Source: Eledone cirrhosa (taxonomy: Eukaryota). From it: a stretch of 64,000 bases of DNA. The notes below the pieces were generated by a model. It did no database searches, had not been told where the DNA came from, and saw only the letters and a program-made list of their open reading frames with translations. Of this stretch, positions 28,940 through 32,832 are shown piece after piece. The stretch lies in NCBI GenBank assembly GCA_964016885.1, contig OZ024743.1:353152001-353216000 (forward strand), given 5' to 3'. The position numbers were made by a program, and so were the translations under genes. The stretch's first letter is position 1. The number at the start of each line of letters is the position of its first letter.

Positions 28940-30122
28940 ACAAGTACAACCTTATATTGCTATACTGCAAATAGCAGCCACTCAATGATAATTGTTGTTC
29001 ACGTCCAAATTTTCAAAATAGTGAGTAAGTTACTCTTAAAAAAGTTCTTAATATATAGAGAAAAACATGTTTTGGGAATTGTATTTACTAGTATAGAGAG
29101 AGAGGAAGTGGAATTAGAAAGTGGGGGGACAAACGGAATAGTATAGAGAGAGGGGAAGGGGGAGAAGAGTTAGGAAGTAGAGTGACAAACTGAGATGGAG
29201 GGAGGGGTAGAGGTAGAAGGATTCCTTGATCAGTTTTGATACCTAGACTTCATGTCGTTGATTTAGAGTGTAGTGAGTTAAAGAGAATTAAATTGTTTAT
29301 AGTGGGAGGGATGGAGAGAGAGAGAGAGAGAGAGAGAGAGAGAGAGAGAGAGAGAGAGAGAGAGAGAGAGAGAGAGAGGAGAGAGAGAGAGAGAGAGAGA
29401 GAGAGAGAGAGAGAGAGAGGGGGCGATATAGAGAGATAAACATATATATAAAAAATAAAAATAAAAATAAAAATAAAGAAGGGAAGGAGAAAGAAGAAAA
29501 GAAAAGATAACCAAAAGGGGTAGATAAGAAAGGAAGAAAACGAAAAGAAATAGAAAAGGAATGAAGGAGAAGGGAGGGATATAGGTATTGGTTTTTGTGG
29601 GTAATTAAAGGGGTTAGATACAATAAGAGGGTAGAAAGTCTAAGTATATGCAGTTTGTCAGGTGTTAGTAGGAGGTTAAGGGTTGATTTGTACTTGTAGT
29701 GCGAAAACTTTTCTTTGAGTCTATGGTTACAATAAATTGATCTTTCGATTTTATTGTTGAGTAACTTATTCTTCGAACTCAAAATGTGGAACAGTTCAAG
29801 GTCACACAATCGACAGCTTCTCATACCACTCCGATATGGGGGCGCGTTCGATAATTTTTTCCACTTCAGAGTGTATTGATGGTTACTTTCCCTCAGTTGC
29901 CAGGTCTTGTTTGCAAGGGTAGTTACATAACGATGCTGGGAATGCTTCATTGCGTAACGCTGTGTATACCAACGGGCTTTAAATGTATTCCCAGTCGCTC
30001 CGATGTAATACCATTTCTGGTTTCTGATTCTACTGTGCATTGGTAAACCAGGTTAGACTGCATGCATTCATTATGTAATGGACAGGTTTCAGGTAGGTGG
30101 CAGTTACAATTCTTGACAAGAA
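28940..30122 (-). mobile_element. PLE 3' fragment (Naiad-like GIY-YIG)
   Basis: rc: CNCHLPETCPLHNEC..NLVYQC, YIGATGNTFKARWY, CRLCDLE, LLNNKIER..CNHR. Confidence 0.88.
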
Positions 30123-30708
30123 TTTATAATGACACACAACCCATGTCACCAGAATATATTCAACACTGCCAAAGCAAACCTACCGATCATTGCACAAAGA
30201 AATTAATTAAAAGGTTTAATCACAGACCGAGCTTTGATTCTTAGTAAAAGACAGCCGAAAAATTTGAAGCAATTACTAACAAAAGCAATTTTGACCTTAA
30301 CAACAAAGACCAATCATTCACTGTATCTAAATGCAATGATAGTCGATGTGGCACATGTCAGTTCATACATACTGGTCAATATATGAACACAAAAACTGGA
30401 AAAATATTCTCAAATGCAAATATGAACTGCAAAAGCAAAAATCTAATTTACTGCATTAAATGCCCGAATTGTGAAGAACTATATGTCGGTCAAACTGGAA
30501 ATGCACTATCGGAACGTGCACGGGTGCACCGACAGCAAATCAGATACCCAAATGTCCGTCAGATACCCCTGAGTAACCCTCTAGCAACATGTGGTCAGAA
30601 AATATTTATAGTATTTCCATACTACAAACTACACAGCCCAAGTGAAATCAAGAGAAAAATTAAAGAAAAGAATTTTATTGATACATTCCAACCCAAGCTA
30701 AATGAACA

Positions 30709-30898
30709 ATAATAATTGTTTCTACTTTAGACACAAGGCCAGCAATTACTCAGTGCATTACTGGTACTTTATTTTATCGACCCCGTAAGGATGAAAGGCA
30801 AAGTCAACCTCGGCGGGATTTGAACTCAGATCGTAAAGGGACGTAACTATGCTGGAAAGCATGGCGTCCGACCCTCTACCGATACTGCCAATCCACCT
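30709..30898 (-). mobile_element. Nin/Deu-domain tRNA SINE
   Basis: Same consensus as 3041-3221. Confidence 0.85.
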
Positions 30899-31307
30899 AA
30901 ATGAACAATAATAATGCTTAGTGGTATTACTTCTACTACGACCGTGTCGACTACCACCACTAACAACAACAACAACAACAGTAATAATAATAAAAGTAAT
31001 GTTGATGTTGATGATTACTGAAGATTTTTTTGTAAAAACCCTAGAAAATGCTATTTTCATCATTTCTAAAAATAGCAAAACAATTGATGCTTTGGATAGG
31101 GTCAAATAGAAGTCGTTAGACATGCTCAACCAACCGTGACGCCTAAACCAATCAACTTTAGTAATCTAGTGAAACCACACACCGATTGGTCGAAATACAG
31201 TTTGCAAAACTTAGCATTCTGTAGCCCCTTTTTACTGTATATAAGGCACAGATTTTAGCCATCTCATTACAGTTTAAAATTGCAAACTTGACTGTCACCA
31301 CTGAATA

Positions 31308-31346
31308 TGAACCTGAAGATTGCGAAAGCATGAAAGTATTTGTTCA
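31308..31346 (+). ncRNA. Minimal hammerhead
   Basis: TGAAC-CTGAAGA-T-TGC(gaaa)GCA-T-GAAA-GTAT-TT-GTTCA. Confidence 0.82.
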
Positions 31347-32832
31347 ATTAACATTTAACATTGAATATTCTACCATACTATTTCATTATAATATCATTAT
31401 AATTTTAAAGGATTGTAAATAAAACGAGTAAATCAGAGAAAGTTGGAATTCCTTTTATTAATATAAACTCCTATACACAATCATACACACCCGAGTATAT
31501 ATATATATATATATATATATATATATATATATATATATATATATATATATATATATATATATATATACATATACAAAATTAAGATAAATCAAAATGAATT
31601 TAATCTAAATCAAAATTATGGGTGTCATGCCAGAAAGACATGCGCCATATCACCCGCAAAATAAGCTCTAAGGTTCTAACGAATAGGTCCGATTTGAACT
31701 TGAAGTGCAAACATAGATCGCTGAAACTTCTTCCTTGTTGAAAATCCAAGTATCGGCATCCGTGGTTTACCATTCGATTAATTGGTGAAATATATTCCTT
31801 TAATGGAATATATACAGGGAAGATTAATCATATTATAAGGTATCTATTTTTGAAGTTCTGGTTAACTTTATTTAGTTACCTACCTAGCTATGTGTGCTTA
31901 CACACTTGTAAAAATTATCTCCTGTGATTATTCATGTTTATTTATATGTTAATCAATTTCTAGTTACTATATATATATATATATATATATATATATATAT
32001 ATATACAAAGAGAGGGGGGATAGAGATAATAGCTGACTAAGTACACACGTATTTTCCTCGTGAAAATGTTTCCCGTTTTCCTATTTTTTTTCCTTACTTT
32101 CGTCTATTTTTCTATTTATTCTCTCTCTCTCTCTCTCTCTCTCTCTCTCTCTCTCTCTCTCTCTCTCTCTCTCTCTCTCTCTCTCTCTCTCTCTCTTTCT
32201 CTCTCTCTCTCTCTCTCTGTCTCTCTCATTCTATTTTACGATGAGGGACTAATGTCCGAAATGTTGAGATTCTTTTCTTACTAGACCAAGCGTTGAACTA
32301 ATTACTCTTTTACTCTTTTACCTGTTTCAGCCATCCGGCTGAGGCCATTATTGTATTGTGTTGTTCTTCTGTGTGGTTTTTGCTTGTTGACTTCCCTCAT
32401 ATATATACATATATATGTGTGTGTGTGTGTGTGTGTATGTTCGTTTTTGTGTGTGTGTGTAAGACTGTGTGTATAATTGTAAATATAATCATAATTATAT
32501 GTAATCTTCAAGAGGTGAGGTGTACTCTTATTTTAAACAAGTAAGACATTTAGCACTAATTCTGCAGAGGAGAGGGGTATGATTTCTTTGGTGTACACGG
32601 TAATCCGATCACCTAGAATGCGATAAATATAGAGTTCGTGTCCCGTGAGACTTCCTTCCTTTTTCTGTCGAATATTAATGCTAGTAAACGTCTTATATAT
32701 ATATGTGTGTGTGTGTGTGTGTGTGTGTGCGTGTGCGTGTGTGTGTGTGTGTGTGTGTGTGTTCACCCGGGTGAGCACTCGATGTTTAGGTTCACGTCAG
32801 TATCGAGGTGTAGAGCTAGACAGAGAGTAGTA

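Follow-up and report, generated by a model that had tools for sequence, protein, structure and literature searches.

Head-to-head junction of Hydra-clade and Neptune-type PLE fragments between (TA)n tracts

The stretch of DNA analysed, 64 kb in length and called the window here, is AT-rich animal DNA in which PLE units lie side by side, packed between (TA)n tracts and with only TA tracts separating them. The unit at 28941–31495 is composed of two opposed endonuclease fragments joined head-to-head, a minus-strand arm (28941–30114) and a plus-strand arm (30123–31495), bounded on the left by a (TA)n tract (28838–28940), which is common to the adjoining same-family fold-back unit at 28421–28837, and on the right by another (31496–31573). 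The original prediction of a minus-strand endonuclease with a CNC..CPL..C linker, joined to a plus-strand endonuclease with C..RCGTC and C.S.NLIY motifs and with (TA)n at both outer ends, was confirmed, the homology ending at 30114 and 30123. It had also placed both 5' truncations just upstream of the endonuclease. The minus arm is cut two codons before its linker, and for the plus arm the placing is imprecise, since this arm starts some 70 codons upstream of its linker cysteines. The junction hairpin, the SINE with its 19-bp duplication and the hammerhead-like motif described below were additional to that prediction. No inverted similarity between the arms was found in 28932–31495, unlike the canonical terminal inverted repeats of one-family units. 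The unit is a dead fossil, decayed transposon debris without a function of its own.

The minus-strand homology, from 30114 to about 29693, covers a linker (CNCHLPETCPL..C) and a GIY-YIG endonuclease, interrupted by one frameshift at about 30015. The linker contains the CxCX5C arrangement of the Hydra clade, as CNCHLPETC, and the endonuclease carries CRLC..E, LLN and CNH (pattern CxxC-E..N-CxH), with neither CCHH nor a cysteine pair inside the GIY-YIG core; CxxC..E recurs in 147 of the 150 matches. RT lies upstream of the endonuclease in the relatives P0077 and P0075 and in the window copies at 42991–44181 and 23690–25472, and DKT was found in the RT of P0077 and of the window copy at about 23700, both on the same branch as the minus arm (100/96), which itself carries no RT. 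By the motifs defined in PMC8557442 (section 11, Fig. S2), the arm is a Hydra-clade PLE endonuclease. All endonuclease-side motifs and the (TA)n end are common to it and to the Hydra clade of C-terminal EN+ PLEs treated in that source, Hydra-1_Obim included, but the arm is only a truncated fragment, and no hammerhead with at most one mismatch in the first core motif was found at its end. It had originally been called Naiad-like, an identity that was rejected. Naiads are described with an N-terminal endonuclease followed by CxC and RT, a CX2-5CxxC linker and CCHH (PMC8557442), whereas here the linker is of the wrong type, CCHH is missing, and the endonuclease of the relatives is C-terminal, with RT preceding it, the opposite of Naiad. 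A word-index search with this arm gave no matches among 25 candidates; the full HMMER scan gave 1817.

On the outer side of the minus-arm endonuclease lie non-coding sequence and then (TA)n, at a presumed outer boundary. This stretch (28941–29692, minus strand), which is pyrimidine-rich in sense and includes a (GA)n run at 29314–29419, is taken as the 3' UTR of the Hydra arm on the grounds of contiguity and of the similar UTRs of window Hydra copies. Because the window holds no second copy of either arm's family, and because hammerheads are absent from the minus arm as well as from other ends scanned (two of four other Hydra ends and the one other Neptune end), each outer stretch is only presumed to be the 3' UTR of its own arm. 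Hammerheads are called universal in Hydra (PMC8557442); the minus arm may have lost its own by decay, or its far end may differ from the native terminus, and in view of this absence the filing under Hydra rests on the protein. Hammerhead-like cores with very long stem II loops (~75–95 nt) were seen at two Hydra 3' ends, 41489 and 2277 (+). The Rfam scan returned just microsatellite and hairpin noise, with no hammerhead among the matches listed, 150 of 179.

The plus-strand homology (30123–30712; Pfam GIY-YIG E 2.4e-7) begins with the end of the thumb/linker region of a PLE C-terminus, continues through a CX4CxxC linker and a GIY-YIG endonuclease and closes with the stop codon at 30710–30712, being disabled by an in-frame stop at 30204–30206 and a frameshift at about 30288. 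Its linker motifs read CNDSRCGTC and CKSKNLIY, with 23 residues between CX4CxxC (CNDSRCGTC) and the next Cys, a long spacer unlike the short Nematis one, judged by eye against Fig. S2 of PMC8557442. The C, C and first H of CCHH are kept and the second H is replaced, though it is 96% conserved in the 26 relatives covering the site. The codons upstream match the pre-endonuclease region of the RT-EN proteins P0001, P0002 and P0006, with DKG in the first two, an endonuclease position behind RT that sets the arm apart from Naiad, and the arm is 46–59% identical to 17 longer proteins, 13 of which have an RT domain. By motif, in a comparison holding no named Neptune reference, the arm is Neptune-type, as had been proposed; CX4CxxC with a long spacer, the CCHH cysteines in the GIY-YIG core and a C-terminal endonuclease, behind RT in the relatives, are common to it and to the Neptune clade, from which it differs in being truncated and decayed and in the replaced second His. 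Family-level relatives were found for neither arm, the best identities being 44% and 72%.

Since a SINE-like repeat at the Neptune stop codon (30717–30896, plus strand) is enclosed by two copies of a 19-bp target-site duplication (30698–30716 and 30897–30915, 19/19 identical), the SINE was inserted later; in the comparison of ten window copies, it deviates from the majority of the nine others at 7 of 181 positions. The remainder of the arm (30916–31495) is its presumed 3' UTR or pLTR and contains, in sense and ~160 nt from the 3' end, a minimal type I hammerhead-like motif (31308–31346), made up of CTGAAGA, a 3-bp stem II with a GAAA loop, GAAA and a 5-bp stem I. The layout resembles the PLE motifs of File S2 of PMC8557442, and the fold energy is unremarkable (z −0.61).

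An endonuclease tree of 29 rows placed the minus arm among 14 Hydra-type rows (support 100/96) and the plus arm among 11 Neptune-type rows (support 97/95), on a sample of 10 of the 27 Neptune-side and 10 of the 150 Hydra-side matches, hand-picked for length and spread and again without a named Neptune reference. A single clade for both arms was rejected (p-AU 1.5e-8), a phylogenetic separation which bears out the original claim of deeply different PLE lineages.

The two arms meet flush, with only 8 nt between the two coding matches and with neither a TA tract nor host DNA. Among the plus-strand matches starting within 30000–30200, 18 of 21 start at 30123, and the minus-strand matches reaching beyond 30030 (n=51) start at 30108–30120 in 28 cases and further inside the arm in 21, the other two passing 30125 only via stop codons. 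No Neptune homology was found left of 30123 (best E 0.3), and 45 queries gave no Hydra match right of the join. At this point lies a perfect hairpin (30108–30124), AATTCTTG-A-CAAGAATT, with 8-bp arms and a 1-nt loop. Its right half repeats the Hydra end in sense orientation and shares 2 nt with the first Neptune codon. The chance of such a hairpin within 10 nt of a given junction, determined from 20,000 simulations, was 0.0008 (loop of at most 1 nt) to 0.0036 (loop of at most 10 nt). In the window, 5 of 65 hairpin rows have a 1-nt loop, this one included; three of the others, at 13737, 28648 and 61377, stand at same-family inverted joins, and the fourth, at 14385, in an AT-only 5' region. The same-family inverted unit at 61166–61543 has an 8-bp hairpin with a 1-nt loop (61369–61385), followed by a 3-nt overlap, read by eye, into the second arm, the layout seen here but confined to one family. 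Such a hairpin is absent at many other joins of the window, for example at 44183, 23667 and 12637.

The protein relatives were also compared across the hairpin. Its translation gives I-L-V, and none of 44 Hydra relatives is hydrophobic at all three positions; the Lys at −2 fits Hydra linkers, with K or R in 24 of the 44. At the place of the GAC AAG of the hairpin, four and three residues ahead of the first matched codon, 2 of 13 Neptune relatives have D-K, so that some of the hairpin could be native to Neptune, in combination with a small deletion. Beyond the 2-nt overlap, the next 12–20 Neptune nt resemble the sense continuation of Hydra to a degree that only 0.5–7% of controls reach, by length scored, these lengths having been chosen post hoc; the same test at the 18.5-kb pair showed nothing.

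As regards age, changes at conserved sites, scored against 60 of the 150 matches for the Hydra arm and 27 matches for the Neptune arm, amounted to 2 of 22 and 4 of 56, respectively (p=1.0), and with a looser threshold to 5 of 32 and 6 of 80 (p=0.29), while disablements numbered 1 in 141 codons and 2 in 196 (p=1.0). A large difference in arm age, which had been named as refuting a shared origin, was not detected by these tests of low power, whose weakness follows from the narrow span of arm divergence, 0–8%, among the PLE pairs measured in the window.

The architecture repeats, with other lineages, that of the unit at 18534–22479, as originally noted. There, two lineages whose linkers are short and Nematis-like when set against Fig. 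S2 of PMC8557442 are fused head-to-head, and a fold-back of ~120 bp (2/112 mismatches) precedes the second element. The centre of this fold-back (19691–19727) contains a 10-bp hairpin and a slipped 8-nt repeat, which points to more than one template switch. A third candidate heterologous tail-out unit was observed at 27398–27734, its left part being an unclassified repeat with a second copy at 11359–11596 and no coding evidence, and its right part the 3' end and tail of the pLTR family of the 55.7–61.1 kb Neptune element. The unit at 453–699 was discarded as heterologous, given that its left piece is also found behind the 3' end of that same Hydra family at 39653–39820 and begins like other Hydra tails. 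Eleven same-family inverted units were aligned in the window. In asymmetric ones, near-identical arms were found (0/405 and 2/697 mismatches), so that a second RNA is not generally required. In the three-copy unit at 11936–13004 (two tandem, one inverted), private differences are distributed 2:2:6–7 (p 0.04–0.08), the changes in the inverted copy being suggestive only of a separate template for that arm. At 28421–28837 a symmetric fold-back is centred on a 1-nt loop, at a place where the family's own sequence already comes close to a palindrome (CTAATCAGATCAG in its copies at 55.9 and 60.9 kb); such native micro-palindromes may be what fold-backs start from.

The reading that we tentatively prefer, at somewhat under an even chance, is that a single (TA)n break primed a different PLE cDNA from each of its ends and that snap-back and microhomology joined the two. 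From the observed arm identities, flush join, hairpin, TA flanks and later SINE, we infer the following steps. A PLE endonuclease would have cut the (TA)n tract, after which the left end would have primed Hydra cDNA and the right end Neptune cDNA, each from the 3' end of its RNA and inward, stopping at ~1.2 kb; since both 3' ends face outward, each cDNA should have started at one break end and grown inward. The 3' end of the Hydra cDNA would then have snapped back and served as its own template for up to 8 nt, and the new end would have annealed to the Neptune cDNA via the 2-nt overlap, perhaps aided by the patchy similarity over the next 12–20 nt, before fill-in sealed the unit, both steps being possible for RT or for host end-joining. 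Such a fold-back of the top-strand Hydra cDNA would give a short sense copy, as seen, and then Neptune sense.

The snap-back scar shows only that a free 3' single strand was joined, and the locus alone is no proof of co-insertion. In R2, the cDNA snaps back before 5' joining (PMC11371274), and palindromes at PLE inverted junctions have been read as self-priming (PMC3846280), but plain deletions made by SD-MMEJ carry the same scar (PMC5728401). Since snap-back end-joining acts at any break (PMC5728401), sequential insertion and later deletion predict this scar as well, and units separated only by TA tracts offer ample scope for both. In sequential insertion, one arm, more likely the Neptune one, would have been present first with its 5' end against TA, the other element would have entered that tract, and its snapped-back cDNA would have been joined into the older copy after a target-side deletion. 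We consider this rather unlikely, even if TA tracts adjoining PLEs have been re-targeted throughout the window and single-ended copies with the 5' end against TA are present (55700–61112), because every TA repeat between the arms must be lost, while the single-ended copies, inspected by eye, keep their 5' TA. The SINE and one extra disablement in the Neptune arm speak for an order of arrival, but an age difference was not detected, at low power. Opposite-orientation PLE-in-PLE insertion is known, as Pen2a in Pen3 (PMC3846280), and the presence of a fold-back in just one arm of each heterologous pair would also suit sequential insertion.

That two neighbouring same-family inverted units were instead fused by a later deletion, snap-back repair removing the inner arms and the TA and leaving 8 bp of Hydra fold-back, is less probable still. 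It would account for the 8 bp here and the ~120 bp at 19.7 kb as residual pieces of fold-backs, the window is rich in adjacent units, microhomology deletions in PLEs are described (PMC3846280), and SD-MMEJ produces such scars (PMC5728401); it requires, however, that large deletions with one and the same result took place twice within 64 kb, and the hairpin tip is retained intact. Moreover, small random deletions between neighbours should yield mostly tail-to-tail fusions, and none was seen, the direct coding–coding contacts of the window being both head-to-head (tail-to-tail 0/2), a comparison of two cases with coding evidence only. The flush join, the rare hairpin, its same-family parallels, the 18.5-kb fold-back, the lack of tail-to-tail products, the poor fit of I-L-V to Hydra linkers, the sense similarity beyond the join and the like decay incline us towards co-insertion, without quite making it probable. 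Amplification and long reads are known to produce fold-back chimeras as artefacts, and two unrelated loci might have been joined at the hairpin in the library or the assembly. This is very improbable, since the inverted arms elsewhere in the window mostly differ from each other (up to 7.7%) and are therefore old genomic structures, and since the join carries the same signature as other inverted units and the architecture recurs.

Among described systems, the unit resembles head-to-head inverted PLE insertions (Craig 2021, PMC8557442, Fig. 2; Arkhipova 2013, PMC3846280), having in common with them the outward 3' ends, the (TA)n target and the junction palindrome; those that these sources describe, with an inverted 5'-truncated copy at the 5' end, are two copies of one family, whereas here two clades are joined. 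L1 twin priming likewise uses two primers at one target and joins the cDNAs by microhomology (PMC10760644), but there a single RNA is copied and the inverted part is its 5' portion, while here the 3' ends of different elements are present. In R2 snap-back 5' junctions and in snap-back SD-MMEJ, the 3' end is also briefly self-copied before joining (PMC11371274, PMC5728401), the partner being target DNA or the other break end instead of a second retroelement. No cross-clade head-to-head PLE unit was found in the literature searched, mostly outside subscription papers, in the portions of these sources covered; the evidence for novelty is weak, same-family units with junction palindromes being already known (PMC8557442, PMC3846280).

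The origin of PLE inverted structures is given as an open question in section 15 of PMC8557442, self-priming having been proposed (PMC3846280). Cross-clade pairs can reveal if the second arm was copied from the first arm's template or from a separate RNA, which same-family pairs cannot, and the density of units in the genome allows a test by counts of junction orientation and comparison of arm ages. It is conceivable, if still short of likely, that PLEs integrate in a two-ended manner, in which either side of a (TA)n break can be primed on an RNA of its own, even with particles from clades as different as Hydra and Neptune, and snap-back and microhomology stitch the cDNAs together; cross-clade units (2, perhaps 3, in 64 kb) would in that case arise regularly, as a minority of the products, and let PLE clades exchange sequence. 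The interest thus lies in a genome-wide count for PLE integration and not in the locus itself. In addition, cross-clade fusions would mislead the building of repeat libraries by giving chimeric consensus sequences.

Regarding the PLE landscape, Octopus has Hydra and Naiad families, both preferring (TA)n (File S1, PMC8557442). In the window, the Neptune element at 55700–61112 is near full-length, with direct pLTRs (3/370 mismatches) and an additional upstream ORF of ~210 codons (56081–56719), and a decayed near full-length Hydra element at 14047–18138 has direct pLTRs that bear a hammerhead, together with an inverted copy restricted to the tail. A scan of bacterial and archaeal genomes gave a single locus, weak and irrelevant. 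Outside the PLEs, an APE-RT LINE, presumably RTE-like, occupies 47452–50500, the SINEs of the window are ones that we take to resemble octopus SINEs, and an inverted repeat of ~260 bp at 33030–33290 adjoins a SINE. The arms are nearly equal in length, with 1174 bp at 28941–30114, 1174 bp at 30123–31495 after subtraction of the SINE and one duplication, and 1175 bp at 18534–19708, a match noticed post hoc, fragile through the ambiguity of the TA edges and the 106-bp (GA)n, and probably a coincidence.
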